DNA of 64,000 bases from a virus (lineage: Duplodnaviria > Caudoviricetes), in the IMG/VR virus record IMGVR_UViG_3300033463_000004, positions 32,001-96,000 of that record. One strand, 5' to 3'. The first letter of the stretch is position 1. Every line of letters starts with the position of its first letter. The notes below the pieces were generated by a model. It was not told the origin of the DNA and searched no databases. It saw only the letters and a list, made by a program, of their open reading frames with translations. Shown here piece after piece: positions 4,512-44,644 of this stretch. The translations under genes and the position numbers were made by a program.

Positions 4512-4648
4512 ATAATCCGGAATGTTCCTTCTCCGTTTTCATACAAGGTTTGGCCGCCTTGTTTTCGCCGTAAGCGGGACGGCGATTTGCTGTGTTTTCC
4601 TCCTTGAGAACAGTGCATAATACACCATTCGAAAACATTCCGGATTAT
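4512..4648 (+). ncRNA. candidate structured RNA (closing stem plus three internal hairpins)
   Basis: Perfect 15-bp inverted repeat ATAATCCGGAATGTT (4512-4526) / AACATTCCGGATTAT (4634-4648). It encloses hairpins ACAAGG..CCTTGT, TCGCCGT..ACGGCGA and GTTTTC-CTCCTT-GAGAAC. Located between the helicase stop and a terminator. Confidence 0.5.
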
Positions 4649-4658
4649 TTGATAATTT

Positions 4659-4682
4659 ATGTGGGGGCGAAAGCCCCCACAT
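4659..4682. terminator. intrinsic terminator hairpin (GGGGGC-GAAA-GCCCCC)
   Basis: ATGTGGGGGC GAAA GCCCCCACAT; member of the window-wide terminator family. Confidence 0.8.
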
Positions 4683-4701
4683 TATCAATATATCATATTT
4701 T

Positions 4702-4716
4702 CATATATATATTATT
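4702..4716 (+). promoter_or_regulatory. putative early phage promoter CATATATATATTATT
   Basis: Matches a motif recurring at about 10 intergenic sites; resembles the TATATTA core of phiKZ/AR9 early promoters. Followed by leader hairpin 4715-4768. Confidence 0.65.
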
Positions 4717-4839
4717 ATTATGAATAAGAGATAATCTATACAAATGGATTGTTTCATATTCATAATAAGAAGGGTATTTATACCCTATAACAATTAAATC
4801 TCTCACGCCACGAGGGATAAAAATGAGGAGGATATAGTC

Positions 4840-5202
4840 ATGAAGAAATATTTTGATGAAATCTCGGAACTTGGCGAGAAATTTGAGAGAACAATCTCTC
4901 AAGCTGTAGACATCGTTGCTGACATGAAATCGGTAACGTCTGCATGGATTGCGGCAGCAGACGCAATCCGAGCAAAAGAAATGGTCGGACTGTTGTCCGG
5001 CGAGAAGCTGGAAAAAGCCAAAGACAATCTAATGCCGGCATTTTTGTCGACAGAAGATAAAACATCGTTTGATGAGGTATATGAAAATATGACCTCATCT
5101 ATCAAAGATTTGGACAAACTGATGTCCAAAGTATCGTTGATTCTCTTCGAAGAGAATCAAAATCATCAGGAAGAAAATCATCAGGAAAAGGAGGAAAACT
5201 AA
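4840..5202 (+). CDS. hypothetical acidic helical protein (early)
   Basis: 120 aa, GAGGAGG RBS, downstream of the early promoter. Confidence 0.75.
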   Translation: MKKYFDEISELGEKFERTISQAVDIVADMKSVTSAWIAAADAIRAKEMVGLLSGEKLEKAKDNLMPAFLSTEDKTSFDEVYENMTSSIKDLDKLMSKVSLILFEENQNHQEENHQEKEEN

Positions 5203-5203
5203 A

Positions 5204-5551
5204 ATGACACTTGACGACATCAAAGAGTCTCTCGAAAAGAGACTCGAAAATCTTCTTAACTCTGGTGGGGAGGTAGACTTCCCGAATGGGAAGGCCATCA
5301 AAATTGAGGGCCCGCGTGGAGCGGCAGTCCTCATTACAGGCCTGCTCGCAGGTGTTGGCACCGCGATCGCTGCTGCAATTGTGACTAAACCGGTTGCAGT
5401 CGCAGCCGATGCAGTCAACCGCCTTGTGCGGGACGGTACTGAACTCCGCAATGCAATCACGGATTATCGTGATTGCAAACGAGGAATCTATCCGTTTCCG
5501 GATCAAACGATTCCGGAACCGGAAACATCAGAAGAGGATGCGGGGGATTAA
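5204..5551 (+). CDS. hypothetical membrane-associated protein (early)
   Basis: 115 aa, AAGGAGG RBS, hydrophobic Ala/Gly segment AAVLITGLLAGVGTAIAAAIV. Confidence 0.7.
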   Translation: MTLDDIKESLEKRLENLLNSGGEVDFPNGKAIKIEGPRGAAVLITGLLAGVGTAIAAAIVTKPVAVAADAVNRLVRDGTELRNAITDYRDCKRGIYPFPDQTIPEPETSEEDAGD

Positions 5552-5561
5552 CCCCCGCATC
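5537..5561. terminator. bidirectional terminator between convergent genes
   Basis: GATGCGGGGG ATTAA CCCCCGCATC followed by a T-run. Confidence 0.8.
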
Positions 5562-5577
5562 TCATCTTTTTTTTTTG

Positions 5578-7707
5578 TTAAAAGTTTTGATTTACACTTG
5601 TGAAATATGCATAATCAGATGCATCCAATAAATCAACAGGAGGATTATCTCCACCGTAATCTTGACGTTTATATCCATATACATCATATCCATTATTTGA
5701 AAATCCTGATGCACGGCTATTGTCCATGTTTTCTCGTAACAATTGATTTTCAAATCCATTTGGATCTTTGTATGGAATGATATTGTTGATTTGCTGCTCA
5801 GATAATTCTTTATCATATTCTGCAACTTCACGTCTTGCATTTTTAAATGTACATAAATCTTTATGTATGCCAAAGCGTTCCAATTTGAAACCAAAATAGA
5901 AAATATATAGCACATGGTTATATGCCATGACCAAGTCATCATGACAACCAGAAGCAGCTTCAATTTTTCCATTCTTTGCACGAACAAGATTCATGATATC
6001 AAATGATAAACACTTTGTTGTTAAAAGTTCTTTGTAATCATGAACATGTGATTTCAACAGAACAAACATCTTTTCACGAATCGCAGTTGTAAGATATGTA
6101 CCAATGTATCCTTTTTCAATTGCTTTCCGTTTTACAGTCATTTCATTTGTTTCATTTTTTGTAATTGCATTCTTAGATGCATCCAATTTTGGATCATGAT
6201 AGAAACGATGTTCCAAATTGGATTCTTGTACAAAGTCAACAATTGCAGTACCCAAATTATTTGTTTCAATAATAAAGATACATGATGGAATCAGCTTTGC
6301 AACCTCAATTATGACACGCATTAAATCCAATGGTCCTAAGAATGGGGATACCAATTCACCAACAACTTGGAACGTATATGGATGAACAACAATCAATGCT
6401 GTATTATCTCCATTCTTTCCAGATGCAGGGTCGATACCAACCATGTATGGAAGCTTGATATCATAATACGGTGTATTTGATGTCAGACTCTTATGAACAA
6501 TTTGATGTTCATAAACTAAGAAATGATATTTATTCAATATCATGATGTCATGATCCGGTTGACGTGTATGTTGTGCAATATAATCAATGTCAGCTTGCTC
6601 GAAAAGAACACCTTCATCACCACGATATCTTTGTAACAAAACACCACGACGATATTCGTTGATCGTTCCTTTTTTGACAGCTTCGTAGTATTGTTCTTTT
6701 AACCAGTTTTCATCTTTGCGTAATTGTTTATAATTAAACTCGATATAGAACATAGATACTGGTATACGATCTTTATCGTCATCGTCAGCTTGAGGAATAC
6801 TCTTCATATGTTCAATTTCAGCATCAGTTTTGTCATAAATATGTTCGTCAAATACAGGAAGATTGTCAATAATTTTCTGGAAGTCAATTCCTTCTTGTGT
6901 TTCGAGGTTTCCAGGTGTGGAAGCATACATGATACATGAACGTATACCCATTTCTCTAGCAGTGATACGTGCCTGAACGATTGTCGGGTTGGCACCATCG
7001 ATGAATTGTTTCATATAAGAAATAAACTCACATTCATCAAAGAAACCTGCATAAAGTGAAAGACCACGAGATTTATCTTCTGCAACAGATTCTGAACGTG
7101 CTGCAGAAACAGTTGCAATTGAGCAGTTGTGTGCTTCATACCGAAGTGACTGAAGACCTGGTAGATGTTTTGCATTTGCCCATGGATTCATGTATTTCGG
7201 TAGAGCTGTGATATAATCACGCAGAATACCAACATTGTCCATACATCGTTTTTCTGTACGATGCATGTATGGAATATCGACATTTCGATATTCAAATAAC
7301 ATCATATATGAAACAATTGATGTCAGTACTGTCGTCTTATAAGTTTGACGAGGTTGTACAAGTTCGAAATCGAAACTATGAATGAATGACCATATTGCGG
7401 CACAACCAGCTCTATGTAAATACAATGGAACCGCGCCTGCACCACGGATCGGTATTCTGACAACTTCTCTAAAATAAAACCATGGATTACTTTTACATTC
7501 AGCAACAATTCTTCCTATATTTTCTGCAGTAATATTTGGATCATATGGGTCGATGTCTTGTACACCTAAATGTGGAAAGGAAACTTCTAACATGAAATAC
7601 CAATTTTTGATACCAAGTGTTTTTAATTCTTGTGCTGTTAACAAAAAAGATTGGTTTTTTGTTCCAAAATCATAATATTTATTTCCAATTCGTTTGATAT
7701 CTGACAT
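5578..7707 (-). CDS. terL: terminase large subunit
   Basis: NPWFYFREVVRIP; Walker A PRQTYKT; Walker B FFDE; motif III ASTPG; nuclease GIDPA..D, IETN and HDDLVMA. Start moved to ATG 7707 behind AGGAGGTGA (ORF track starts at 7719). Confidence 0.9.
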   Translation of the reverse strand: MSDIKRIGNKYYDFGTKNQSFLLTAQELKTLGIKNWYFMLEVSFPHLGVQDIDPYDPNITAENIGRIVAECKSNPWFYFREVVRIPIRGAGAVPLYLHRAGCAAIWSFIHSFDFELVQPRQTYKTTVLTSIVSYMMLFEYRNVDIPYMHRTEKRCMDNVGILRDYITALPKYMNPWANAKHLPGLQSLRYEAHNCSIATVSAARSESVAEDKSRGLSLYAGFFDECEFISYMKQFIDGANPTIVQARITAREMGIRSCIMYASTPGNLETQEGIDFQKIIDNLPVFDEHIYDKTDAEIEHMKSIPQADDDDKDRIPVSMFYIEFNYKQLRKDENWLKEQYYEAVKKGTINEYRRGVLLQRYRGDEGVLFEQADIDYIAQHTRQPDHDIMILNKYHFLVYEHQIVHKSLTSNTPYYDIKLPYMVGIDPASGKNGDNTALIVVHPYTFQVVGELVSPFLGPLDLMRVIIEVAKLIPSCIFIIETNNLGTAIVDFVQESNLEHRFYHDPKLDASKNAITKNETNEMTVKRKAIEKGYIGTYLTTAIREKMFVLLKSHVHDYKELLTTKCLSFDIMNLVRAKNGKIEAASGCHDDLVMAYNHVLYIFYFGFKLERFGIHKDLCTFKNARREVAEYDKELSEQQINNIIPYKDPNGFENQLLRENMDNSRASGFSNNGYDVYGYKRQDYGGDNPPVDLLDASDYAYFTSVNQNF

Positions 7708-7767
7708 CGAAACCATCACCTCCTATCAATAAGCGTTATAGTATCGGTATAAAAAAAATATAGAATA

Positions 7768-7789
7768 CATGGGGGCTTTCGCCCCCATG
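7768..7789 (-). terminator. intrinsic terminator
   Basis: CATGGGGGC TTTC GCCCCCATG with an A-run on its + strand 5' side (U-tail on the minus strand). Confidence 0.8.
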
Positions 7790-7832
7790 CAAACATTAAG
7801 ATTGACGCACGGATCCTCACGGAGGAAATTTA

Positions 7833-10052
7833 TCAGACATATTGTTTCAATTGATTTAATGTTGGTAAAAGTTCGGTGAATCGCCCATACATGGATTCAA
7901 TATAATTGCGATCGCTACCTTCAAACAAGTCGGTTTCATCCATAAGTTTAAAGAATTCATCCAGATCAACAAACGGATGTGCATTCTGGTATTTCATGAA
8001 ATATGAATACATAATCAAGAATGCACGAAGTTCAGGAATTGATATTTGAACTTCAACGTTATTGATCAAAACATCATATAACTTATCGAATGTACCAATT
8101 GTCGAATAACCGAAGATATCAGGACGCAATTTGATACCCATAAATTTGAGCGTGTTCTTCAAGTTATCCAATTGTGGAAATTGGTTGTACTTTGAGAAAT
8201 CTAATCCCATATCATTTAATTGCGCCATGAGGATTGAATTTTCTTCATATTGAGAACCACGATAATATGTCGTAATCTTTGCGAAATCTTTTACACCAAC
8301 ACCCGCAAGGAAGTTATACGTGTCATATTCACCAAACTTCACAGGGTTATCAGAATAATGTCGTAAGTTCTTATTGAACTGATGTGTCTTGACAGGTTGA
8401 TCATATAATGTCGTACGTCCAGTTGAAATTGCAGATAATGCTTTTGATGGTTCTTGTTTCAATACCCACGTATATTGGTATCCAACAGGATAAGTTTCAT
8501 CCAATTTGATCCAACGTTTATGAAGCTTCGTAAATACATTATAATGGCGCATGATTGCAGGATATTTTTCATATGCTTCCAGTATTGCATCACGAACACA
8601 TACTTCGTTGAATGGTTTAATTTGAATATTAATACCATTCATAAGAATATCATCAACAACAATTTGTGGAGATTCTTTATATAAACGCCGTATCTCGTTA
8701 CCTTGATCCGGATTGAAGATTGAAACGAATTCAGATGTGATATTGATAATTTCATCATTTGATGCACCGTTCTGATACATCTTTCCGATATGCTGGTTCA
8801 TTCTGTCCATCATGAATGTCATGGAACCTTCATAAGTTGCAAATGCAATAATACGATTCGGAACCGCAAGTGCATTTGCTAACATATGAATCGGACGTCC
8901 ATCATCTGTTTTTGGCATATCTGCAGCTGGAATAATTTTGGAAATAACCGATTTATTTCCATAACGTCCAACAACCTTCTGTCCAACTTTGATTTCCATA
9001 GGTTGAAGCATTGTGAACTTAATAATTGTATCCGCAATATATTCCTTCGTAACCCATACGGATTGATTCAAATATTTTTGTGCTTTATGATAAATATCCA
9101 ACAATGATGTGTCATCCTGATATGGATCAACAATTACAGTTGATATATATGCGTATATATCAGAATACCATTGTTTGATTTGTGATAAATAGAAATTGAA
9201 TTGATCATTCTCAACATCAACATTCGTAAAGATATCAATGTCAGCAACAATACCATGTGAGAAAATCTTTGTATCATTGATATGAGGTATGGAAGCTTCT
9301 GCAACAGATGATACATATGAATTCTCTCTAATAGAACACAAGATATCATCTTGAACTTCTTCACCGATATTTGGAAATGGTTTGTATTCTCCATTTCGAC
9401 CATAACGATTCAGCAGAAATGATTTCTTTGAAACATTCACCGTTACAATATCAACGAAATCATATTCCAATGCTTTTGCACATTCATCAGAAATAATTAA
9501 TGAATCTTCTGTGAGTTCCGGTAGTACAGCATATGCCATACGAACATTTACACCCGCGCAATAATTGTCATTTACATAAGATGACGATTGTGCAATGGAA
9601 GCTCCTTTCGGAAGAACATCTCCTTCTTGAATATTGGGGATATTATTCTTCATACGAAAACCGTATTTTTCAACAAGATTCACTGCCGGGGTGAATATTT
9701 TACAAAGATATTTTCCCGTTTCAAGATTCTGAAATATATATGCAATTGGTGAATAAGGTGCATTCGGAAACTTTACAAACTTTCGCATTAAACGGTAATC
9801 TGCATGTGTTCTGATATCCCATGAAGAACGTTTTCCGAATTCGTTCTCTGCACCAGAAAATACCATGGGAAATTCAGGATTACGAACAACCAATCTTTGA
9901 GAAGTATGTTTTACCATCATTCCTCCACGTGTCGTGGAAATCTTCTCAGGGAATGCCATTGCAGACATACCAGTCAATGACAAAGGATTTACTTCAGCAC
10001 ATCTTCTTTCAATGTCCGAAGCATTGTTCATAACTTGAGATTTTTTGGACAT
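7833..10052 (-). CDS. rpoB: multisubunit RNA polymerase beta subunit, C-terminal part (probably non-virion RNAP)
   Basis: RG.M..KHTSQ, EDSLIIS, GQKVVGRYGNKSVISKI, MP...DGRP...NALAVPNR, PVKFGEYD: beta regions F-I in split jumbo-phage form. Start at ATG 10052 after GAAAGGA. Confidence 0.9.
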   Translation of the reverse strand: MSKKSQVMNNASDIERRCAEVNPLSLTGMSAMAFPEKISTTRGGMMVKHTSQRLVVRNPEFPMVFSGAENEFGKRSSWDIRTHADYRLMRKFVKFPNAPYSPIAYIFQNLETGKYLCKIFTPAVNLVEKYGFRMKNNIPNIQEGDVLPKGASIAQSSSYVNDNYCAGVNVRMAYAVLPELTEDSLIISDECAKALEYDFVDIVTVNVSKKSFLLNRYGRNGEYKPFPNIGEEVQDDILCSIRENSYVSSVAEASIPHINDTKIFSHGIVADIDIFTNVDVENDQFNFYLSQIKQWYSDIYAYISTVIVDPYQDDTSLLDIYHKAQKYLNQSVWVTKEYIADTIIKFTMLQPMEIKVGQKVVGRYGNKSVISKIIPAADMPKTDDGRPIHMLANALAVPNRIIAFATYEGSMTFMMDRMNQHIGKMYQNGASNDEIINITSEFVSIFNPDQGNEIRRLYKESPQIVVDDILMNGINIQIKPFNEVCVRDAILEAYEKYPAIMRHYNVFTKLHKRWIKLDETYPVGYQYTWVLKQEPSKALSAISTGRTTLYDQPVKTHQFNKNLRHYSDNPVKFGEYDTYNFLAGVGVKDFAKITTYYRGSQYEENSILMAQLNDMGLDFSKYNQFPQLDNLKNTLKFMGIKLRPDIFGYSTIGTFDKLYDVLINNVEVQISIPELRAFLIMYSYFMKYQNAHPFVDLDEFFKLMDETDLFEGSDRNYIESMYGRFTELLPTLNQLKQYV

Positions 10053-10133
10053 GACAATCACCAATCCTTTCGATAAAGTGTATAAGTTAGTTGTAACCCC
10101 TTTATATTTAATCATACTTTTGGGTTACTTGAA

Positions 10134-10147
10134 AACGATATACTTCT
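10134..10147 (-). promoter_or_regulatory. variant early promoter (AGAAGTATATCGTT on the minus strand)
   Basis: Partial match to the TATATNATT core, followed by leader hairpin GTAACCC...GGGTTAC. Confidence 0.4.
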
Positions 10148-10160
10148 CAAAATAAAAAAA

Positions 10161-10193
10161 AATATAATGCGGGGCATTGCCCCGCATTATATT
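10161..10193 (-). terminator. intrinsic terminator
   Basis: AATATAATGCGGGGC ATT GCCCCGCATTATATT with an A-run upstream on the + strand. Confidence 0.8.
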
Positions 10194-10195
10194 CA

Positions 10196-11074
10196 TCACT
10201 GATCTTCAGGAGTTGGTGTTGGTACTTGTGAAAGAACATCAACAACGTACTGCTCACATGGTGATTTTTCTTCTGCATTCGACATGAAATCAGATATTGC
10301 AAAGTCTGCAATAAGATACATACCAAGTACAATATACTTGTCTCCAAGTATATCAACATTTGAAAGCATGATATCGATCAGATCCAACAGATTGAATGGA
10401 CACGGACATTTATCTGACAGATAAAATTCGCAAACCTTCTTTTCCATCGGAGCAAAGAATAACATATCTTCACGATATTTGTTAATCTTATTATCATTGA
10501 ATTTCTTCGTATGAAGATAATTCTTAATATCATTCAATGTGATATTTTCAACAATGTATTCAATCATTGGTGTCATATTCGAAAAGATTTGAATACGAAT
10601 CTTTTCAATTTGCTCAATGTATTTATACACTGCCCAATAGATGAACACGTCGTCAACAATATCATCCATTGTTGCCTCACCGTTTACCAATGCCATGATA
10701 ACCGGATGTGTTTCATTGAAATCTGACCGGATACGTTCTTCGGTAATACGATTCTTGATACGTTCATACTCGGGAACAATTCTGTTTACAACGAACAAAC
10801 GTTGTTTCATAAGATCAGCCGGGTCAATTTCGTCCGGTGTTTCTTTTGGTTCGATGTCACTCGGGATAAATGCATCGATTGGAGATGTTTCAAGTTCAAT
10901 ATCCGATGTAAATGTTTTGTATTCTTCATCAAACATCTTACGATCAAGAATATGATGGCGTCCATTCAACATTCTGACATTTTGAAAGAATACATTACAT
11001 GCAGAGATTTGAACTCGGTGTGTTTCAAAGAGTTTTGTGAACTCATTGATTTTCGATTGCGGGATTTTGAACAT
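10196..11074 (-). CDS. hypothetical protein
   Basis: Long ORF; start placed at MFKIPQ (11074) behind GGAAGGAAG rather than at 11173. Confidence 0.7.
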   Translation of the reverse strand: MFKIPQSKINEFTKLFETHRVQISACNVFFQNVRMLNGRHHILDRKMFDEEYKTFTSDIELETSPIDAFIPSDIEPKETPDEIDPADLMKQRLFVVNRIVPEYERIKNRITEERIRSDFNETHPVIMALVNGEATMDDIVDDVFIYWAVYKYIEQIEKIRIQIFSNMTPMIEYIVENITLNDIKNYLHTKKFNDNKINKYREDMLFFAPMEKKVCEFYLSDKCPCPFNLLDLIDIMLSNVDILGDKYIVLGMYLIADFAISDFMSNAEEKSPCEQYVVDVLSQVPTPTPEDQ

Positions 11075-11249
11075 CCGAATCTTCCTTCCATTGTAGATTT
11101 TGCTGTGGATAACGTTGTGCATAGTATTGCTCTCTGATAGGTTGATAATTATCAACCACGAAAGCAATTCCATTTTTTTCTATATGCACATGAACGAACA
11201 AGTCCAGTCGTGTAAACTGGACTTGTCCGAAAGATGAAGCATTGATCAT
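11043..11249 (-). CDS. small hypothetical protein
   Basis: 68 aa, GAAAGGAA RBS upstream of ATG 11249, overlaps the next start. Confidence 0.55.
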   Translation of the reverse strand: MINASSFGQVQFTRLDLFVHVHIEKNGIAFVVDNYQPIREQYYAQRYPQQNLQWKEDSDVQNPAIENQ

Positions 11250-11282
11250 TCTTTATTTAGTTCCTTTCATATGGATTTCCCA

Positions 11283-11519
11283 TTAAGAAAGTTCATCGAC
11301 CAAGTCATCAATTGCCGAAGTGTTCAAAACTTGATGGGCGTTACGAATGGAATCATTATAACTCATTTGAGAACCATGATTTGTATTCGTTGACGCCATC
11401 TGTTGTTGATGTTGTTCCATTTGGCGCCGTTTCTGGAACCGTCGGAGTTCTCGGAGTCTGTTTACAAACTTGCGCGGCATTTGTAAGAGCGTATCAATTG
11501 GGATACACCGATTGAACAA
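11283..11519 (-). CDS. tail/baseplate assembly chaperone C-terminal ORF (possible -1 frameshift extension of the upstream gene)
   Basis: TTG start with no clear RBS. The frame is open back to 11615, overlapping the upstream gene. IPIDTLLQMPRKFVNRL resembles gpGT/gp51-type C-terminal parts. Confidence 0.5.
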   Translation of the reverse strand: MFNRCIPIDTLLQMPRKFVNRLRELRRFQKRRQMEQHQQQMASTNTNHGSQMSYNDSIRNAHQVLNTSAIDDLVDELS

Positions 11520-11533
11520 TTCGCCGAGTTCAA

Positions 11534-13285: not shown

Positions 13286-13322
13286 TTTTCATACTCCTTT
13301 TTGAGAAAAATTTTTCAAACAG

Positions 13323-13336
13323 AAATGTATATCATT
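13323..13336 (+). promoter_or_regulatory. putative early promoter AAATGTATATCATT
   Basis: Motif match, followed by hairpin CATACGGG-AATAA-CTCTGTATG. Confidence 0.5.
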
Positions 13337-14111: not shown

Positions 14112-14118
14112 TGATATA

Positions 14119-15163: not shown

Positions 15164-15165
15164 TT

Positions 15166-15189
15166 AAGGTGGGGCAAACACCCCACCTT
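15166..15189. terminator. intrinsic terminator
   Basis: AAGGTGGGG CAAACA CCCCACCTT followed by T-rich sequence. Confidence 0.75.
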
Positions 15190-15203
15190 TTCTTTGTTCT
15201 TAT

Positions 15204-15386
15204 AATGAATAAAATGAGACCCATGAAGAACTTACGTCACCACAGGAGGTGACGATCATGTCTGAAATCGTTATTATACGGATTCCTCAAGGAACAGAGA
15301 TCATTTGTGAGTAACGTTCACAAATAAAACACAAACCACCATCTACAACTTAGGTGATATACTTCATGGATCTCATTTTATTCATT
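15204..15386. ncRNA. structured element closed by a 25-bp inverted repeat (candidate sRNA or structured mRNA for an 18-aa peptide)
   Basis: AATGAATAAAATGAGACCCATGAAG (15204-15228) pairs with CTTCATGGATCTCATTTTATTCATT (15362-15386) with 1 mismatch. Internal hairpin CGTCACC-ACAGGA-GGTGACG. Lies alone between two terminators. Confidence 0.5.
15258..15314 (+). CDS. possible 18-aa micro-peptide MSEIVIIRIPQGTEIICE
   Basis: Perfect AGGAGGTGA RBS upstream of the ATG, but the RBS is partly sequestered in a hairpin. Confidence 0.3.
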   Translation: MSEIVIIRIPQGTEIICE

Positions 15387-15411
15387 GTATCAAAGTTATT
15401 ACAATATAAAA

Positions 15412-15441
15412 TATACATGGGGGCATATGCCCCCATGTATA
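15412..15441. terminator. bidirectional terminator
   Basis: TATACATGGGGGC ATAT GCCCCCATGTATA followed by a T-run. Confidence 0.8.
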
Positions 15442-15459
15442 CTTCTTTTTTTTGTACAA

Positions 15460-23531: not shown

Positions 23532-23543
23532 TACAAAAACGTT
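23532..23543 (-). promoter_or_regulatory. putative late promoter AACG-N6-TA
   Basis: Minus strand AACG TTTTTG TA, about 28 nt upstream of the beta' start. Confidence 0.4.
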
Positions 23544-23550: not shown

Positions 23551-23717
23551 TAAAAAATAAGTGTGCAGGGGCCGAAGCCCCTGCAAGAGAAAATGAGGAA
23601 GTCTGTCATGTCAAACCGAGAAAACATGACGAAATGGAGAATAATCCAGCGTGGATACAATGGATTGGAAGATTGTCTTTTCGGCAAAAGACAATCTGGT
23701 TCATCATACAATGAACT
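23551..23717 (-). ncRNA. candidate ~170-nt sRNA: four hairpins plus a UUCG terminator
   Basis: Late-type motif GACA-N6-TA at 23718-23729. Hairpins GTTCAT/ATGAAC, AGATTGTCTTTT/AAAAGACAATCT (perfect 12 bp), AATCCA/TGGATT, GTCATGT/ACATGAC. Ends in TGCAGGGGC-TTCG-GCCCCTGCA plus a U-rich tail. Confidence 0.5.
23564..23585 (-). terminator. intrinsic terminator with C(UUCG)G loop on the minus strand
   Basis: Plus strand TGCAGGGGC CGAA GCCCCTGCA, preceded by an A-rich run. Confidence 0.8.
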
Positions 23718-23734
23718 TATTTTTTTGTCATTTA

Positions 23735-23749
23735 AATAGATATATTATT
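23735..23749 (+). promoter_or_regulatory. putative early promoter AATAGATATATTATT
   Basis: Core TATATTATT upstream of the gyrB-beta' operon. Confidence 0.55.
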
Positions 23750-36324: not shown

Positions 36325-36338
36325 GGAGGTCAAACGAC

Positions 36339-37619
36339 ATGAGCTCACATTTACTCCCTGTAAAGACCGGAAACGAACAGTTTCCGGTCATTTATAGGAA
36401 TACCGGACCACTTCCTGGAAGTGGAAGTCAGATTGTTTCTGGTTTGACGACTGTACATAATGGAACATTGTATTGTTTCAAACAAGGTAATTTTAACCAT
36501 TATGCAACATCAACGCAGACAGGCGAAGCTGTATTATATACAATAAATTTATTTACAGGCGAAATGAAAAAATATGCACAATTCGCATTTAACAGATTAT
36601 GGTACCAATATATCGGTTCGATACTTGTTGATGATAATTATATTTATTTATCATCTTCATGTACCGCAGTTTCTACTTGGGAAGCATATCACTCTGATAG
36701 ATATCCAATAATGATAATTTTCAAATTAAAAGATGAAAATGATTCATCATTAACATTACAAAGAATCGGTGCATATAAATACACTATTGCGAGTGGTAGC
36801 GCTTATGGACGTGCTCGTTGGTATGATAGTACGCATATTTGTGTAACAACTGAAAATGCATTGTTGTTATTTGATATCAAAACACATGTATATCAAACAA
36901 TTGCACATAATTTGAATTGGAGTACACGCGATTTTGCTGTTGGTAAGAAGCTAATTGTAGCAACAAGAAATTCAGCTTCATCTCCAACGTTTTGGGGTTA
37001 TCGGATTTCTGATGGTACATTTTTCACTGGAACAGCACCATCAACCGGTATTGCATGTATTGATTATTGTAACGGCAAATTCTTTTTTGCCAATGCAAAC
37101 TATCTGTATATTTATGATGAAAATACAGAAACATTCACAACCACAAAAAATATCCCATGGACAACACCGCATTGTGTATGTGCTTCGGATTTTGCCGTAT
37201 ATGTGATCTCTAATTCATCATCTCGTGGATACATATATGACTATAAATCAGATTTTACACAAACATTCATATTCCCATGGACAATAGACACGTTAGTTGG
37301 AGACTCTGATATATATCGAGGCTGTGTATCAGAAAACTATTGGTTCTTAAATCATAATACATTGATGATATGTGATTATTCAGGTTATTCAAAATATAAT
37401 CTTGGATACATTTACAAATCATTTGTCATTCATTGTAATGAAACGACAATGGAAACTTTCACATATGATCCACGATTTGTATCATTTGATGAAACATCCA
37501 TGTATGTTCATGATGGTAATATCGATTATGATTTTGAATCAACTGAGCAAACTAACATCAAATCTGCACATATATCAAAATCTGATTATAAATTTCTCAA
37601 TCGAATCGAATTTAAATAA
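36339..37619 (+). CDS. beta-propeller-like virion/tail protein
   Basis: 426 aa, beta-rich blades (YLYIYD, GYIYDY, LLLFDI), AAGGAGG RBS. Confidence 0.6.
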   Translation: MSSHLLPVKTGNEQFPVIYRNTGPLPGSGSQIVSGLTTVHNGTLYCFKQGNFNHYATSTQTGEAVLYTINLFTGEMKKYAQFAFNRLWYQYIGSILVDDNYIYLSSSCTAVSTWEAYHSDRYPIMIIFKLKDENDSSLTLQRIGAYKYTIASGSAYGRARWYDSTHICVTTENALLLFDIKTHVYQTIAHNLNWSTRDFAVGKKLIVATRNSASSPTFWGYRISDGTFFTGTAPSTGIACIDYCNGKFFFANANYLYIYDENTETFTTTKNIPWTTPHCVCASDFAVYVISNSSSRGYIYDYKSDFTQTFIFPWTIDTLVGDSDIYRGCVSENYWFLNHNTLMICDYSGYSKYNLGYIYKSFVIHCNETTMETFTYDPRFVSFDETSMYVHDGNIDYDFESTEQTNIKSAHISKSDYKFLNRIEFK

Positions 37620-37642
37620 ATATCGAAAGGAGTGTGATAATC

Positions 37643-40264
37643 ATGCATGGAACACCAATTGATGAAAAATATCAACGGGCAATGGAATTTGCAAAACATT
37701 TCAAACATGAAAACAAAACATCAAGTATTTCAAATGTATACGTAATACAAGTGAAAGATCTTGATGGAAATGTCGTTGATGAAAAATATGGTATGAATTT
37801 GATGACAAATTACGGTATGTCGCAATATTTTGTATCTAAAGCTAACTGGCCGACAAATTTCTATATCGGTAATGGCTCTGGAACATTTAATCATACAACG
37901 AACGTCATACTTAGTCCTATTACAACGAACCCAGCAACAGTCACGTCAAGTTCAAAGAGTTATGCGTATCCTGTTTATTATGATTCATTATCCGGTGTTA
38001 TCACAACAACTGTGAAATTCCTTGAAGTGTATTTTAATTACAATATCGATGGAGTCACTGGACCAGTTGATATTTCTGAATACGGTATTGGAACTGCATA
38101 CAATGCATTATGGACACATTCATGGGTTTATAATAGTATTGGTGAAAAATCTACGGTTCGAAAAGATATTAATACACGAATTGATATTACAGTGTATTTA
38201 TGTATGTCTTATTCAACATCTATCATTGAAGATGGTTGGACTGCAGGCAAATCTATTTGTATCACCAATCCTTCCAGAATGTTTAATCGTACATCTGTTA
38301 CAATGGATGAACCAAACCTTTATACGTTCAGAAGAAGTGATTATTATGCAAGAACAAAATCCTATACATCTGGATATGCTGATAATGTTTACACTGTAAC
38401 TTCAAATATTTCTGAATTTACAATGTTACCAGCGGATCAATCTGATACAAACCAAAATGTTTATATTGATGGATTCATTTCATGGTGTGCTGGATTCAAT
38501 ATGTTCGAACGAGTCACAATGCCAACTGGTCATGAAGTTTCGTTCAGTGATGTTATTGGAATACCGATTGCATCAATTGCACATACATGGGACGGATTTG
38601 CACGTTCATTCGGACAACCCGGAACATATATCCCATTCACACAAGCAGACATTACTGCATCTTATACGTACAATTACAAGACTGGACAATTCTCTTGTCC
38701 GGATCATTTTGTAAATGATGCAAGAAAATGGTATAATGAAATGTCGTTCAGTACAGATTTTGCAACGACTGCGCGTTATACCAATAACAATGAAGTGTTA
38801 TCAATAAAACTATATCGAAATATCAATACTGAAGATCCTATTGTTGCAATCAGTTCTGCAAATACAACTGTGTATGCAACTGATTCATATTGGGATACTT
38901 CATCATGGAGTCGTATCGTAGATCTTTCATCGATACCTTCTCAATTACAAAACAAACGATACTGGCTGACAACCGATGACATCGCAATTACACCTGTTCG
39001 TGGCATTCAACCATTCGAATTTATTGCATCTGATGATGTAACGCATCATCCAACATTATTATTTGATAAACGTGAATACACGAGACAAGTTCAATTCACG
39101 ACATATGACAAAAGTCCTGATAAGAAATGGTTTATAATCGGATCAAAGATCTATATCGTAGCACGTGGTGACTTGGTTGTTACCTCATCAGGATCATATG
39201 CGATTGGATATAATAATTTGATTATGTATTACAATACTGGCGCAAATACCAATTATTTCTATGAAACAAATATTACAGAACAACCAGCACCAGTCCCAGT
39301 GCAAGTTACGACATTAGGATCTTTGCAGTTCAGATACTCTCATATCAGTGAATCAGAAAATGGATATGCGATTGCATCAGCAACATCAAATGTTACCATT
39401 AAATTTGATTTAACAGGTAGCTCAATTGTTCAAACGCAATTACCTGATTCTCTTGACGCTTGTTGCATATCGAAATCACAAAATTATGCGTATATTGATG
39501 CAACGAATTCACGTCGTGTATTCGTTAAGAAACTTTCAGATGATACAACTGTGAAACAGTTAGATATTCCTGTCAATTATGCTGCTCCAACTTGTATATT
39601 TGGTTGGAAAACTCATCTATATATCACTGATAATTCGACGTATGTGTTCTTATATGATACTGCAAACGATTCATTGACGGAATTATCAACAACAATTCCA
39701 CCAACTGAATATAGAAGATCTTCCAGAGATGGTAACAGTTATTGTCAATTTTCATCATGCTGTGATGAAGGAATGATACTTTATCGTGATAATACAGGAA
39801 CTTCGTATGCAGGTATTATTGTTATTACAGAAAATGATCCAACAACAATAACAGCATTAAATAATCTCAGTGATGGTAATACATCTGGATATATACGACA
39901 TAGATATTTTGATATCATTTCTGTAAACACGAATTCATTATTGATGGTATGTCATTTTGATAGCAGCGGTACAAATTACTATGGTTTTTCTGCAATAGAT
40001 ATCGGCCGATATTTACATGAAAACGTTGTAAATGTTGTCACATATGGCGGATCAAACAGATATCCATTTGCATTATTTGGAGAATTTTACGTTTGTCAGA
40101 ATGAAACATTTAGCGTTGCAAACTTAATGTATCATCGTTTGGTTGGAACAACGAAATGTGTTTCAACAGCAAATCACATCAAACATATATCCAATAAACG
40201 TTGGACAATGAGTGTTACAAATCTCGGTGGATGGAGTGGTTTACCACCCGGAAACAAACAGTGA
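37643..40264 (+). CDS. tail spike / receptor-binding protein paralogue A
   Basis: Thr/Ser/Tyr-rich; shares N-terminal, central and C-terminal blocks with 40807-44391. Confidence 0.65.
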   Translation: MHGTPIDEKYQRAMEFAKHFKHENKTSSISNVYVIQVKDLDGNVVDEKYGMNLMTNYGMSQYFVSKANWPTNFYIGNGSGTFNHTTNVILSPITTNPATVTSSSKSYAYPVYYDSLSGVITTTVKFLEVYFNYNIDGVTGPVDISEYGIGTAYNALWTHSWVYNSIGEKSTVRKDINTRIDITVYLCMSYSTSIIEDGWTAGKSICITNPSRMFNRTSVTMDEPNLYTFRRSDYYARTKSYTSGYADNVYTVTSNISEFTMLPADQSDTNQNVYIDGFISWCAGFNMFERVTMPTGHEVSFSDVIGIPIASIAHTWDGFARSFGQPGTYIPFTQADITASYTYNYKTGQFSCPDHFVNDARKWYNEMSFSTDFATTARYTNNNEVLSIKLYRNINTEDPIVAISSANTTVYATDSYWDTSSWSRIVDLSSIPSQLQNKRYWLTTDDIAITPVRGIQPFEFIASDDVTHHPTLLFDKREYTRQVQFTTYDKSPDKKWFIIGSKIYIVARGDLVVTSSGSYAIGYNNLIMYYNTGANTNYFYETNITEQPAPVPVQVTTLGSLQFRYSHISESENGYAIASATSNVTIKFDLTGSSIVQTQLPDSLDACCISKSQNYAYIDATNSRRVFVKKLSDDTTVKQLDIPVNYAAPTCIFGWKTHLYITDNSTYVFLYDTANDSLTELSTTIPPTEYRRSSRDGNSYCQFSSCCDEGMILYRDNTGTSYAGIIVITENDPTTITALNNLSDGNTSGYIRHRYFDIISVNTNSLLMVCHFDSSGTNYYGFSAIDIGRYLHENVVNVVTYGGSNRYPFALFGEFYVCQNETFSVANLMYHRLVGTTKCVSTANHIKHISNKRWTMSVTNLGGWSGLPPGNKQ

Positions 40265-40276
40265 GGTGTATGTGTT

Positions 40277-40789
40277 ATGTCTGGAATTCATAAATCGAAA
40301 GAAGTATATAAATATACACCAACACGTGATGGTACGAGAAAACTTGTACCTGTTAGAGGCGTCTATGTATCGGGGCTCCATACGGATCCCCTTTACATGG
40401 ATCATTATATAACAATAACAGAATATTCATCTGCGGATGTTGAAATTGTTGATTATACTACACAAGAAACAACACAGCAATCACCAGGTTTGTCTGTTAT
40501 TGGTATTGATATCCATCATGCTGACATTAGTGCATATACTAGAAAAAATACGACAGCATCTTCTCCCGGTTTGTCTGTTATTGGTATTGAAATTGAACAT
40601 TGTGATATTTCGCCATATACACGACAATCACAAACGCAACAATCACCTGGCTTGTCTGTTGTTGGTGTATCTGTTAGACATTCTGAATATGTCAATTATT
40701 TTAGAACGCATATGGATTCATCGTTGGAATATGTCTTGTCTGTATTAGAATATACATCAAGTTCATGTGACATCGAAGATATTATTTAA
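40277..40789 (+). CDS. small virion protein with three 25-aa tandem repeats
   Basis: YT...T...SPGLSV(I/V)G(I/V) three times, 75-nt DNA period. Confidence 0.7.
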   Translation: MSGIHKSKEVYKYTPTRDGTRKLVPVRGVYVSGLHTDPLYMDHYITITEYSSADVEIVDYTTQETTQQSPGLSVIGIDIHHADISAYTRKNTTASSPGLSVIGIEIEHCDISPYTRQSQTQQSPGLSVVGVSVRHSEYVNYFRTHMDSSLEYVLSVLEYTSSSCDIEDII

Positions 40790-40806
40790 AAGAAAGGGTG
40801 AATGAT

Positions 40807-43800
40807 ATGCATGAATTTGGAATTGCAAAAAAATCTATATATGATGAGCATCCTAAATTAAAAGAATTTGAAGAAAATTATAAGAAAACACATCCGGGTG
40901 TTGATATTAACACCAAAAATCTATATATCGTTCAATCTGTGAACCGTGATGGCGTCGTGACATCTGAACAATATGGTTTGAATCTTATAACAGACGCCGG
41001 ATTTGATCAAATTATCTCTAATTATTCACCTAGCTCTGAGACATTTAGAAAAGCAATACGTCTGTTAGAAGGTGTACCAATAGCCGAAGCTCCAACAGTA
41101 TTGACATCTACCATTCCGTCATATACACGAAGAATTCAAACATCAACCATGTCTGGTAATAATAATTATTATGCATTGCAATATAATTCTGAAACTGGTG
41201 TGATATCTCAAAGGATTAATCAATGGGTATGGGAATTTGATTATAATGTGACTGGATATTTACCAGATGGGACATCAGTTTCAATAGATAATGATTTTAC
41301 TGCAAATTGTCTTTATATGTATAATCCAGATTATCCCGACTGGTGTCCTACTGGAATAATATCAACATATGAAGCAGATGGTATGCCAGCTCCAATTATT
41401 AAACATCCAAACGAAAAATTATTTATAACATTTTATGCAACAGGATCTATTCATGAAGATGTTATAAATGATGCGTACGATGATGAAATATATTTTGCCG
41501 TTAATCCTGGAAAGATTTCTAATATTGCATGGGGTTATAGTCATTCTGGATATAATCGTGTTAATTCTCCTTTTGTGCATGCACAATGGTTAGGACCGGT
41601 TTATAAATCATATGCTTTGTCATCAGGAAGCACTAACACATATGTTGATATAAGTTGTAATGAGACTGGTCAACGATTTATCATGGGCAACGGTGAAGGA
41701 TATCGATATGGTCGTCAAAATATGACTTATGTTTTATTAGACCCGCGTGTTGCGTTTACCATGGTAGATTATCGATGGGGACATCGATATTATACCAGCT
41801 GGGATGATGCACATGTCATCAAATGTATATCGGTGGAACGTTTGGATACCCCAGAAGAATTATCAACAAATTTTGGATACACGAACAGAAATGACTCTTC
41901 ACAAATTTCAAATCTATTTGCATTGAAAGCATTTAACACACTTTACCCACTAGGAATTTTACCAGCAGCCGATTTCTCCATCACGTCCATCAAAGGATAT
42001 AATTACATATCGAAAGCCTTTGATATTGATATTTCATACATCAATAGACCTAATGCATATTATAATAACCCATTTATTACATCGGCTGGTATGGCAATCT
42101 CTGTAGCTGGTGCGCCCAGTGGTACATATTATTTATATATCAATCAGCGTGCAAAACAACTCAACAATGGTTTACAACCAGTACCGATTACTGGAATATC
42201 ATTGGACACATCAAGAACTGTTTATGTTGCAGATAAATATTGGGATTTTTCAACTTGGTCTATTGTGACAAATCCAAGTTCAATCCCACAAGCGTTACAA
42301 AACAAAAAGTATTTCATGTTGAAAGATGGTATAGCAATTATCACACCAACATATGATCAACAAGTACATGAATTGGATGTTGGTTCAGAATACACAGTAC
42401 TAAACACGCCCACAGATTCTATTCATGGATGGTATCGCGGATATAAAACATTACACAATCTGACAGACAATTGGATTCTTGTACAAGATTATTTGTTATT
42501 TATGGATCCAACAGGAAAAGATGTTCAATATAAATATAAACTCGAAGGTCCCGAATATGCTGTGTGGTCAAAAATATCTGACGCAGTATGGAATCAAGAT
42601 TATGCAAGCCTTTACATATATTCAAATGGTGAATATGTATTGAATACAAATCCGACATACAGTTCTGGAACAACGTACTACACAACGGCAATTGATCCAT
42701 ATACCATTAGATATAATTATGGTAATAAGATTCTTGTTGCGACGATGGTTACACGCGGTAACGATTCATATCCAGCAAAGGTAAGAATCTATACAATCAC
42801 ATCAGCATCATCTGCACCGACATATCAAGATATTACAATCGACACAAACACAACCGATCGGTCATATACTGGTCAATATACATTCTCTTCAAATGGATAT
42901 TTTGTTATCCAAGATGAACATACACATTGTGCAAACATTATTAAAATTTCCGATGGCACTGTTACAAAACTCGAGAATGTCAGTAATTGTTATGCATTGG
43001 AATATTCCAATAAATGTGTGTATTTCCGATATGGTTCATCACCGTTAACATGGGATGTTTACAATATGCAAACAAATACAGTTGAAGGTTCTTTTGTATT
43101 ACCGGATGAATATTCTAATGTCACATATATGTGCGGGTGGCATGAATATTTGTATTTGCAATCATATATCAATCCAAACTATTTTGTTCATATTATAAAT
43201 ACAAATGATTGTTCAATCCACATTGTCGATGGTATGACATTCAATAATCAATTCACATCATATAGGAGAAATAACAATTCAGTTGATTCTCGTTTATATC
43301 GTTTGAATCGAATTAATAACATAAAATTCCATTCGGATTTTATGATCATTGATTGTTTACCAATGAATCAATGGTATATGGATGATGTGTCTCCTAAATT
43401 TATTAAGTATACAGAACCTGAAAAAACATATTGGTTGTACAAATATGGCGATCGAAATGAACGTCAAGTTGATAACTTGTATGAAAAGAACCATTATTAT
43501 TGTACTACAGCACGATTAGGTTCAACAATTCTGGAAGTTCAACAATCAGTGTCTCAATCAAAATTATTATTAATTGATGTCGCTGGACGTTTTTCAGAAC
43601 GGTATGATGGTTCTGTTGATTTTGTTTCTAATTCAAATACCGATTGGCGGGCTGGTGTTCTTGATATAGGATATCGGATAGATAATCCTTCAGATGAACC
43701 TCTCAATGCGGTTTGTTATCATTGGAACAAAATTCAAATGGATAGTACATATGCGTCCGGTGGTATTGCATATTGGAAAAATGGAATTATCATATTTGAT

Positions 43801-44391
43801 ACTAATATGGCTGGTGTATGGTATCCTCTTGAGTGGTTTATCAACTTCAAGATTACAGGAACAACACGCACAATTCAAGCATACAATAATCCGAAGAAAA
43901 TTGGACATGCTTCCATGACGATGTTTTCAACAAACCGTGGAATAATTCAGCATACATCACCACCGACATCAACAGGCGATCTCCATTATGTATTTAAACA
44001 TGATTCATGGGGATATAGTGACTCAAATCAAAATAGTATATTCTGGGGAAAAATTCTAAAAGGTGAGATATTGGGACCATATGCTGCACAATATGATTTG
44101 TTAGATGGAGAATCATTATCAATCGAAATCACACCTGCAGCCGGATTTGAATTCTTATCCGGTACATTTTTATGGTGGATAGAAGAAAAGCAACTCAATT
44201 ATGACGCAAATGGTGATTATGTAAGTTATTCAAATAAATGGTCTTCCTCTGTGTGTAATGCAACTGACAGCATATCTGGTCCATCTCGTGACTTAACAAA
44301 CATTGGTATATGTATTGCAACAAACTCTAGCCAAATCACATGGTTAGAGCCAACATACATTCAATCAATCAGAATAACGAAATCTAGTTAA
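40807..44391 (+). CDS. tail spike / receptor-binding protein paralogue B (with C-terminal extension)
   Basis: Paralogous blocks with 37643-40264; start probably ATG 40807 behind GAAAGGGTG (track start 40798). Confidence 0.65.
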   Translation: MHEFGIAKKSIYDEHPKLKEFEENYKKTHPGVDINTKNLYIVQSVNRDGVVTSEQYGLNLITDAGFDQIISNYSPSSETFRKAIRLLEGVPIAEAPTVLTSTIPSYTRRIQTSTMSGNNNYYALQYNSETGVISQRINQWVWEFDYNVTGYLPDGTSVSIDNDFTANCLYMYNPDYPDWCPTGIISTYEADGMPAPIIKHPNEKLFITFYATGSIHEDVINDAYDDEIYFAVNPGKISNIAWGYSHSGYNRVNSPFVHAQWLGPVYKSYALSSGSTNTYVDISCNETGQRFIMGNGEGYRYGRQNMTYVLLDPRVAFTMVDYRWGHRYYTSWDDAHVIKCISVERLDTPEELSTNFGYTNRNDSSQISNLFALKAFNTLYPLGILPAADFSITSIKGYNYISKAFDIDISYINRPNAYYNNPFITSAGMAISVAGAPSGTYYLYINQRAKQLNNGLQPVPITGISLDTSRTVYVADKYWDFSTWSIVTNPSSIPQALQNKKYFMLKDGIAIITPTYDQQVHELDVGSEYTVLNTPTDSIHGWYRGYKTLHNLTDNWILVQDYLLFMDPTGKDVQYKYKLEGPEYAVWSKISDAVWNQDYASLYIYSNGEYVLNTNPTYSSGTTYYTTAIDPYTIRYNYGNKILVATMVTRGNDSYPAKVRIYTITSASSAPTYQDITIDTNTTDRSYTGQYTFSSNGYFVIQDEHTHCANIIKISDGTVTKLENVSNCYALEYSNKCVYFRYGSSPLTWDVYNMQTNTVEGSFVLPDEYSNVTYMCGWHEYLYLQSYINPNYFVHIINTNDCSIHIVDGMTFNNQFTSYRRNNNSVDSRLYRLNRINNIKFHSDFMIIDCLPMNQWYMDDVSPKFIKYTEPEKTYWLYKYGDRNERQVDNLYEKNHYYCTTARLGSTILEVQQSVSQSKLLLIDVAGRFSERYDGSVDFVSNSNTDWRAGVLDIGYRIDNPSDEPLNAVCYHWNKIQMDSTYASGGIAYWKNGIIIFDTNMAGVWYPLEWFINFKITGTTRTIQAYNNPKKIGHASMTMFSTNRGIIQHTSPPTSTGDLHYVFKHDSWGYSDSNQNSIFWGKILKGEILGPYAAQYDLLDGESLSIEITPAAGFEFLSGTFLWWIEEKQLNYDANGDYVSYSNKWSSSVCNATDSISGPSRDLTNIGICIATNSSQITWLEPTYIQSIRITKSS

Positions 44392-44406
44392 TAAATTCCG
44401 AAATTT

Positions 44407-44421
44407 CACATATATATGATT
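44407..44421 (+). promoter_or_regulatory. putative early promoter CACATATATATGATT
   Basis: Consensus match; no convincing RBS-led ORF downstream. Confidence 0.55.
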
Positions 44422-44644
44422 ATTACGAACATGAGAGATGATGTGTTTCGGGATAAAGGTATCTAAACGGCCTCCCGAGTGTCCTCCCTATGACAGCGCA
44501 CAAGATTGCATCTCTCTGTTCGCAATAATAAATGCATGAATGAAAAACGAGTTCTGATATTTACAATCCATCGTACAGATGGACATGTCGTACGGACATG
44601 GTGAATTGATTGCTCGTATTTTCATTCATGTATTCATTTTTTTT
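44419..44644 (+). ncRNA. candidate two-domain structured ncRNA (~225 nt)
   Basis: Stem 44419-44440 / 44509-44529 encloses TCGGGA..TCCCGA and TGTC-CTCCCTAT-GACA. Stem 44531-44551 / 44613-44634 encloses TCCATC-GTACA-GATGGA and CATGTC-GTACG-GACATG. A T-run follows. Confidence 0.6.

Follow-up and report, generated by a model that had tools for sequence, protein, structure and literature searches.

Regulatory RNAs of the Firmicutes, such as RNAIII of S. aureus and RsaE/RoxS, carry unpaired C-rich or CU-rich motifs, by which they pair with Shine-Dalgarno (SD) sequences. Some jumbo phages carry RNA polymerases of their own; to our knowledge, little has been reported on the non-coding RNAs of these phages, the majority of which are uncultured. 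In this paper, we have analysed four structured intergenic elements, named E1 to E4, in a 64,000-nucleotide (nt) stretch of DNA (hereafter the window), which comprises bases 32001-96000 of the 262,694-bp virus record IMGVR_UViG_3300033463_000004 (37% G+C). The elements were compared with the corresponding loci of relatives, all of them uncultured IMG/VR contigs of 230-278 kb; the phage genome studied is labelled G000, and the relatives are labelled G001-G003 or by L-numbered loci. An earlier note on this DNA had tentatively read the four elements as one panel of small RNAs (sRNAs) directed against SD sequences, and this overall interpretation is partly supported by our analysis. The four elements are real, yet they are not one system; they are four independent accessory cassettes without a common origin. 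Our reading as a whole, to which we would give a probability of about 0.66, is that they are separate cassettes of an uncultured rumen jumbo phage with AR9-like promoters, where E1 would be an sRNA, E2 a duplicated leader unit, E4 a two-domain RNA and E3 a set of hairpins.

In phage AR9, early promoters have the consensus AAATATATATTAT-N6-G(+1), and late promoters the consensus AACA-N6-TA/G, the last base of which is the transcription start (PMC5312081). Two classes of motif in the genome studied here resemble them. The early-type class, TTTTCATATATATATTAT-N6-G-AATAAGAGA, is found at 11 intergenic sites and matches the AR9 early consensus, and the late-type class, AAACG-N6-TAAC, precedes at least nine start codons by 32-43 nt, with GAAAGGAG following in each case, and matches the AR9 late consensus, but with AACG preferred over AACA. 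The consensus match together with the fixed position relative to genes points to AR9-type early and late promoters, the labels "early" and "late" being used by analogy with AR9 only. As with the AR9/phiKZ-type signals, E4 begins with the early-type and E1 with the late-type motif of this phage, which differs from AR9 in its late AACG and in being known here from sequence alone. If these assignments hold, the AR9-like promoter grammar reaches a rumen phage lineage, which helps the annotation of such genomes.

Folding, closing stems and CU tracts of the four elements

The earlier note placed folded intergenic elements at 4512-4648, 15204-15386, 23551-23717 and 44419-44644, and they do fold there. 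The RNAfold z-scores, computed against 200 dinucleotide shuffles on both strands, are about -5 to -8, i.e. -5.3 (+) and -5.1 (-) for E1, -7.9 (+) and -8.0 (-) for E2, -5.3 (+) and -7.5 (-) for E3, and -7.6 (+) and -6.6 (-) for E4. The z-score alone is weak evidence, because GC terminator hairpins push most other intergenic gaps of the genome below -4 as well. Long terminal stems had been described for three of the elements, and we found the same: the closing stem of E1 is perfect (15/15; 4512-4526 with 4634-4648), that of E2 pairs at 27 of 30 positions (15201-15230 with 15360-15389), and of the two domains of E4, named E4a and E4b, the former has a stem of about 21 bp and the latter pairs at 18 of 20 positions (44527-44546 with 44619-44638), while a closing stem is missing from E3. 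Coding DNA abounds in inverted repeats with 13 matches, 62 of them being found across the 263-kb genome, and the stems of E2 and E1 are the top outliers among all inverted repeats of the genome.

The CU tracts complementary to SD sequences, which had been the common denominator of the four elements in the earlier note, are present as written, but only the tract of E1 is conserved in the relatives. They are not significant in themselves, because a 4-nt SD-like or anti-SD-like word is present in 83-97% of the shuffles of each element; the strict CCTCC/GGAGG is present in 11-21%. It is true that none of the elements has a convincing long open reading frame (ORF), although E2 contains a conserved ORF of 18 codons. 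Promoter motifs and 3' hairpins of their own, proposed for two elements, are found for E1 (late-type) and E4 (early-type), while the promoter of E2 is degenerate. At least E1 and E4 thus resemble separate transcription units, each running from a promoter to a hairpin, on the strand that the earlier note had chosen.

E1-E4 share no primary sequence when compared with each other by blastn, as had been noted before, and a blastn search within the genome found no paralogs of them, except for a 32-nt match that leads to a second copy of the E2 ORF (E2', see below). No family of Rfam 15 matched anywhere in the window at its gathering score, the best sub-threshold matches reaching 20-31 bits against cut-offs of 50-120. 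The phylogenetic distributions differ as well: E1 is found in at least six phages, E4 in one relative and E2 in none, while E3 can be aligned over its full length in two close relatives (L048 and L047), and its flanking hairpins and a short motif are kept in L050. With no shared sequence, and with different promoter classes and distributions, the elements do not make up a panel.

Element E1 and its homologs

E1 is flanked on the left by a helicase gene (+ strand, stop codon 4501-4503), and on the right by a gene for a 120-aa protein (+ strand, starting at 4840; hereafter gene 4840). The features of the E1 unit are as follows.

4503-4514, + strand: predicted promoter motif AACGGAATGATA (AR9-late-type, AACR-N6-TA), overlapping the helicase stop codon, with the predicted start at A4514
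4514-4646, + strand: the E1 structured RNA (fold z -5.3; covariance model)
4514-4526 with 4634-4646, + strand: closing stem P1
4527-4534, + strand: CU-rich single strand CCUUCUCC
4543-4562, + strand: predicted helix P2
4565-4585, + strand: predicted helix P3, the loop of which contains GCGGG
4593-4612, + strand: predicted helix P4, with the loop CUCCUU at 4600-4605
4615-4631, + strand: invariant strand GCAUAAUACACCAUUCG (17 nt), from the alignment of homologs
4660-4681, + strand: GC hairpin TGTGGGGGC-GAAA-GCCCCCACA closing the E1 unit, read from the sequence; a hairpin follows E1 in every homolog

A covariance model of E1 found one copy per genome in G000-G003, L024 and L025, and the homologs are syntenic, lying downstream of the helicase gene and upstream of the GC hairpin. 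The design of the fold is common to all of them, namely P1, a CU-rich 5' strand (CCUUCUCC or CCUCUCUCG), P2, P3 with its GCGGG loop, P4 with its CCUCC loop, and a 3' strand with the core UACACCAUUCG, which reads AUGCCAUUCUCG in the divergent copy of L039. The CCUCCU loop is invariant in the six full homologs; thus, the claim of an anti-SD-like loop survives the comparison with relatives for E1, and for E1 only. In a model-guided alignment of five sequences, 12 of the 34 base pairs have changed on both sides and are still paired, while shuffles gave 6.3 such double-sided changes (0 of 500 reached 12), and structures slid by 1-3 columns gave 1-3. Several G-U pairs on the + strand would become A-C mismatches on the - strand, and the + strand is therefore the likely strand of the RNA.

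The promoter motif AACR-N6-TA ends exactly at the first bases of P1 in all six homologs, and this junction is kept in L025 and G003 despite 175-232 nt of extra sequence after the helicase stop codon. Genome-wide, E1 has the sole late-type motif in non-coding DNA whose start region is clamped at 12 of 12 positions, if a match with G-U pairs described at the end of this paper is left aside. Furthermore, E1 folds on its own inside a longer transcript; pairing of its loop in cis with the SD of gene 4840, which we considered, is absent from the minimum free energy (MFE) structure of that transcript. Taken together, the homologs, the covariation, the promoter-P1 junction and the autonomous fold indicate that E1 is a real RNA family, conserved across at least six phages and probably transcribed independently. 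The predicted molecule would be a four-helix RNA of about 170 nt, expressed from a late-type promoter, in which the apical CCUCCU loop and a 3' strand of 17 nt are invariant and the 5' strand is CU-rich; most likely, it is a small RNA that acts in trans or binds a protein. E1 is thus new as a well-supported RNA family with a testable motif.

When the elements were examined for a conserved unpaired C-rich or CU-rich motif of the RsaE/RNAIII type, it was found in E1 only; E4 has none, E3 has it in part, and the question does not apply to E2. Like RNAIII and RsaE/RoxS, E1 would present an apical CCUCCU loop and the single-stranded CCUUCUCC, with a promoter motif of its own and a 3' hairpin. Unlike them, it matches no Rfam family, is phage-encoded and has a 13-15 bp clamp between its 5' and 3' ends; the comparison is made from general knowledge. 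The E1 loop could pair with SD sequences. E1 has matches of 11-14 nt to several RBSs of the phage, which are nonspecific, as any anti-SD pairs with any SD in silico. The more specific proposal that the E1 family are late jumbo-phage sRNAs, which would use the CCUCCU loop and the CU-rich 5' strand to mask strong SDs on early phage or host mRNAs late in infection, is tentative, and we consider it rather unlikely. If it is true, E1 would do as an RNA what translational repressor proteins such as T4 RegA do.

Reduced elements with CCUCCU in a hairpin loop stand at the E1 site of more distant relatives (L033/L034, L040/L044 and L046), and in about ten other relatives the site holds a terminator only; should the masking proposal be right, the one-hairpin versions would represent the minimal functional core of E1. 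A blastn search of the E1 region against the phage GenBank collection gave no match. The IMG/VR scan for the 3' motif of E1 yielded, besides the true homologs, 15 chance matches, which were in serine-recombinase coding sequence (MGHTPFGYRIENG) or otherwise unrelated, and the metagenome scan with a gapped E1 pattern matched at least 119 stretches, where none of the loci examined among the matches listed closes into a stem. Protein-coding explanations were rejected on both strands: for the ORFs that follow the "AAGGAGG" of E1 on the - strand, a start codon is present in only five of eight relatives and the peptides are unrelated, and the + strand ORF from the ATG at 4522 is not conserved in relatives.

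Some further features were seen around the E1 site. L025 has, besides E1, an unrelated clamped element of several hairpins, which stands between the helicase stop codon and E1 (L025:4446-4615); one of its loops reads ACCUCC, and a GC terminator of its own comes behind it. In L026, an E1-like P1, AAUCCAGAAUGUU with AACAUUCUGGAUU, shows a compensatory change from G-C to A-U (L026:5740-5918, - strand of the locus); it encloses a different interior with GGAGG..GGAGG, and lies 1.3 kb from the helicase gene, between two genes of the opposite strand. The helicase gene itself is interrupted in relatives (L032:3001-5118, L039:3384-3684 and L046:3001-4750). The insertion in G003 is in frame and of about 224 aa (intein-like), that in G002 is of about 327 nt, full of stop codons and with a weak match to group I introns (21 bits, E 0.003), and that in L046 is of about 307 nt and breaks the frame.

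Element E2 and its short open reading frame

E2 and E4 are each located between convergent genes. At the E2 site, the following features were recognised.

15164-15408, + strand: inserted block with its own terminator (15166-15189), a degenerate early promoter and a clamped cassette (15201-15389), from the comparison with five relatives
15244-15314, + strand: SD AGGAGGTGA (15244-15252) and micro-ORF (15258-15314; MSEIVIIRIPQGTEIICE, then stop), from the paralogs
15409-15444, both strands: bidirectional terminator common to the E2 site and the tail-tube-like gene, the sole element at the site in relatives

In five relatives, whose tail-tube proteins are 83-96% identical, the site consists of just the stop codon and one bidirectional terminator, so that about 245 nt are additional in the window. 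The tract UCACCUCCU on the - strand, which had been taken for an anti-SD, is actually the ribosome-binding site (RBS) of a micro-ORF on the + strand, with the SD AGGAGGTGA, a 5-nt spacer, an ATG and 18 codons. The earlier note had itself named beforehand, as an outcome that would speak against its reading, CU tracts that are simply RBSs of micro-ORFs, and this is what is seen at E2, because AGGAGGTGA serves the + strand ORF.

Two paralogs of the micro-ORF are found in the phage genome beyond the window. E2' (MTEEIVIIQIPKGTEIICE, 19 codons; G000:C1:193329-193388, L202:1781-1975) lies upstream of a gene for a 225-aa protein, and E2'' (MSEIVIITIPVDTEIICE, 18 codons; G000:C1:174582-174638, L213:1450-1625) upstream of a gene for a 195-aa protein. 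Eight of the 11 codon differences between E2 and E2' are synonymous third-position changes (binomial P about 0.009), the other three being conservative replacements; there is also one whole-codon, in-frame indel, and the stop is kept as TAA in one and TGA in the other. The SDs of the family read AGGAGGTGA or GAAAGGAG. The amino-acid conservation, the synonymous divergence and the presence of start, SD and stop identify a protein-coding micro-ORF, which, by this pattern of codon changes, is under purifying selection. The GGAGG of E2 would thus be the RBS of its 18-codon ORF, the two other copies of which stand in early 5' leaders.

All three copies lie in long clamps, the sequences of which differ while the pairing is kept, and the hairpin at the stop codon of E2 and E2' shows a compensatory change. 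E2' and E2'' are in early 5' leaders of protein genes, directly behind early-type promoters, with the clamp starting from +1; in E2'', the early promoter at whose +1 it begins is a canonical one. In E2, a terminator, a promoter remnant and the cassette follow one another as in the paralogs, but the remnant lacks the ATATATATTAT core, for which reason E2 looks like a duplicated copy, perhaps still transcribed and perhaps not. Judged by its paralogs, E2 is a duplicated unit of terminator, early promoter and clamped leader with an 18-codon ORF. E2' is not present in G001, and scans of IMG/VR for the E2 arm and for the E2 peptide (as a degenerate pattern) gave no matches, nor did the four related genomes. 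A triplicated, conserved 18-residue leader ORF, not found in the relatives, is a second outcome of this analysis.

E2 may be compared with three kinds of known element. As in the leader-peptide attenuation of ermC and cat, E2' and E2'' are short conserved ORFs in structured 5' leaders, and a hairpin covers the stop codon in E2 and E2'; the differences are that E2 has no downstream gene, and that the peptide, of only 18-19 aa, resembles none of the known arrest peptides with which it could be compared. With the mRNAs of type I toxins (hok, fst, txpA), E2 shares a short ORF, long-distance pairing between 5' and 3' ends and an SD partly sequestered in a local hairpin, but the peptide of the E2 family (18-19 aa, IVII-x-IP-x-GTEIICE) is without a membrane-spanning stretch. 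A type I toxin-antitoxin system was rejected for E2, as the hydrophobic run is of only 4-5 residues, and no antisense RNA gene or promoter was found. Finally, like phage "morons", E2 and E4 are units of about 245 nt with a promoter-like sequence and a hairpin, located before a shared terminator between convergent genes and missing from close relatives; unlike morons, they hold no ordinary protein gene, E2 having its 18-codon ORF and E4 no ORF conserved in G001.

Element E4

The features of E4 are as follows.

44408-44427, + strand: predicted early-type promoter ACATATATATGAT-TATTAC-G, with 11 of 13 matches to the AR9 consensus and the predicted start at G44427
44427-44644, + strand: predicted E4 RNA (fold z -7.6), with E4a (clamp GAACAUGAGAGAUG with CAUCUCUCUGUUC; to 44529), E4b (44531-44634) and U8 (44637-44644)
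44656-44679, both strands: GC hairpin common to E4 and the convergent gene for a 1334-aa protein, kept in G001 and G002

The E4a clamp opens with G44427, the predicted +1. In G001, the promoter reads ACATATATATTAT-TACTAT-G and matches the AR9 consensus at 12 of 13 positions, and the same two-domain fold is found, where the sequence of the E4a clamp has changed and a U-G wobble appears on the + strand. E4 is not present in G002 and five further relatives. When the C-terminal half of a 1197-aa protein was tried as the synteny anchor for E4, no relatives were found, and the other flank was used.

The loop CUCCCUAU, proposed as an anti-SD, reads CAACUAU in G001, the sole homolog, and is therefore not conserved; the other CCUCCC of E4 sits inside a stem. 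The short ORFs of E4 are broken by 1-nt indels in G001 and were rejected as coding. As far as promoter match and folding in the two genomes tell, E4 is a two-domain RNA driven by an early promoter, with no ORF conserved in G001.

Element E3

E3 is located between two divergent genes, a gene for a 501-aa protein (-) and gyrB (+). Its surroundings are made up as follows.

23532-23543, - strand: late-type promoter AACGTTTTTGTA of the 501-aa gene, kept in five relatives
23565-23584, - strand: left hairpin T1, GC, with a U run on the - strand only, in the same orientation in the window, L048, L047 and L050
23586-23698, either strand: body with hairpins at conserved positions and the 8-mer ACAATGGA (+) or UCCAUUGU (-), invariant in the relatives compared
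23699-23726, + strand: right hairpin T2 (GTTCAT..ATGAAC), with a U run on the + strand only, kept in four relatives
23736-23748, + strand: early-type promoter of gyrB with the predicted start at G23755, adjoining T2

Shortly behind T1 comes the late-type promoter from which the 501-aa gene would be read. The hairpins of the body occupy matching positions, and their sequences are unrelated in each relative. As to the CU tracts reported for E3, UUCUCC is kept in three of four relatives, while the second tract is lost. An ORF of 44 codons on the + strand is broken by indels in the relatives and was rejected as coding. From this arrangement, E3 appears to be a group of hairpins in a region of divergent promoters, bounded by one terminator of the - strand and one of the + strand, and is possibly a small RNA. 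It was also observed that G23755 is just 3 nt before the ATG of the longest gyrB ORF, which would mean a leaderless mRNA or else a true start codon located further downstream.

Clamps at the 5' end

In E1, E2 and E4, the clamp would start at the predicted transcription start or no more than a few bases away, so that the 5' end would pair with a segment 100-180 nt downstream. The early 5' untranslated regions (UTRs) of this phage open with the same kind of hairpin, and in ordinary ones a long hairpin begins with the predicted +1 G (e.g. from 4722 onward). It is most likely that such a clamp would stabilise the RNA, by analogy with the 5' stem-loops of Firmicutes that block 5'-end-dependent decay. 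That the predicted early and late transcripts of one phage begin inside a long 5' clamp is a further observation of this analysis.

Alternative explanations

Several points weigh against the reading of four separate cassettes. Motifs are the basis of every promoter, start, strand and 3' end given here, and the "early" and "late" labels rest on AR9, a different phage. The covariation of E1 comes from five sequences aligned to the model itself, and because the alignment is small and fitted to the model, we take it as good, not final evidence. With the core of its promoter missing, E2 may be silent. The promoter of E4 has a T-to-G change in its core, and the virion polymerase of AR9 is said to be sensitive to such changes (PMC5312081). 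No promoter of E3 is conserved on either strand, for which reason E3 stays a candidate sRNA of either orientation. The stabilising role of the clamp, too, is something we infer.

A first alternative is that the elements act purely in cis as parts of the neighbouring mRNAs, be it as stabilisers of UTRs or leaders, as terminators, as processing sites (e.g. for RNase III acting on stems of 15-27 bp) or as promoter DNA. Though we hold it to be unlikely, it has to be taken seriously, above all where E3 is concerned, and for E1, which would then be the late leader of the operon behind it: each element adjoins a terminator or a promoter, ordinary early 5' UTRs show the same clamp design, E2' and E2'' do form genuine 5' leaders, and gene 4840, located downstream of E1, has no proximal late promoter. 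On the other hand, E1 keeps its 17-nt invariant strand and its loop while the stems vary, which would be needless for a passive stabiliser; the GC hairpin stands between E1 and gene 4840, and E1 folds alone in the long transcript. Moreover, for E2 and E4, which face convergent genes, there is no gene downstream that they could serve.

The model of the earlier note, i.e. coordinated SD-targeting sRNAs or ribosome decoys for host shut-off or anti-defence, seems to us quite improbable. It could draw on the strict CCTCC/GGAGG in three of the four elements, which at a chance of 11-21% each gives about 0.01 for at least three of four, on the invariance of the E1 loop across homologs, and on the one tract of E3 kept in three of four relatives; but the tract of E2 is the SD of a conserved + strand micro-ORF, the loop of E4 is not conserved, and the elements have neither sequence nor promoter class nor distribution in common. 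In addition, orphan GGAGG/CCTCC in the intergenic DNA of the whole genome are near the composition-based expectation after RBSs, terminator stems and tRNAs are removed. An attractive but unsupported claim of a "system" is thereby taken away, and the four independent cassettes are left.

Non-autonomous mobile DNA resembling miniature inverted-repeat transposable elements, with the closing stems as terminal inverted repeats, is very improbable, even though E2, E2' and E4 are present or absent between phages that are 80-96% identical in their flanking proteins, the arms are of 15-28 bp and the E2 family has three copies, since neither conserved terminal inverted repeats nor a clear target-site duplication was found (just a 4-nt ATAA microhomology at the E2 junctions), no further copies were found in IMG/VR, the arms coincide with transcription starts, and, among the copies of E2 as well as among the homologs of E1 and of E4, the arms differ yet still pair, including by G-U, which is a signature of RNA pairing rather than of transposase-binding ends.

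Two known types of structured RNA were also considered and rejected. For a retron RNA (msr-msd), there is no RVT_1 match in the whole phage genome, and for a Y RNA of the YrlA type, there is neither a TROVE match in the phage genome nor a match to the Y RNAs of Rfam, a host-encoded Rsr being possible.

Genome content and further promoter sites

Proteins encoded in the window include a split RNA-polymerase beta-like protein, GyrB, a helicase and a tail-tube-like protein. A 760-aa protein (7833-10115, - strand) matches domain 6 of the RNA polymerase Rpb2, which fits a phage multisubunit RNA polymerase with AR9-like promoter motifs. A scan of the window for tRNAs and tmRNAs found none; the phage genome has 11 tRNA genes, all beyond the window limits.

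Gene 4840 has a promoter of its own, recognised by the 11-copy consensus.

4703-4771, + strand: predicted early-type promoter ATATATATATTAT-N6-G of gene 4840, with the start at G4722, and a 5'-terminal hairpin at 4712-4771 (inverted repeat I4), separate from E1

The 5' UTR of this gene (4693-4839) is paralogous to that of the 195-aa gene (L213:1430-1691), the two having ATATTCATAATAAGAAGGG...CTCACGCCACGAGGGAT in common, and in the latter the micro-ORF module is inserted in the apex of the 5' hairpin. Finally, a second late-type motif, AACGTTTTCCTG, is found in non-coding DNA of the tRNA cluster beyond the window (G000:C1:245081-245300; window coordinate 213081). Its start region pairs at 12 of 12 positions, with G-U, with a segment about 219 nt downstream, and this site may be another clamped RNA.

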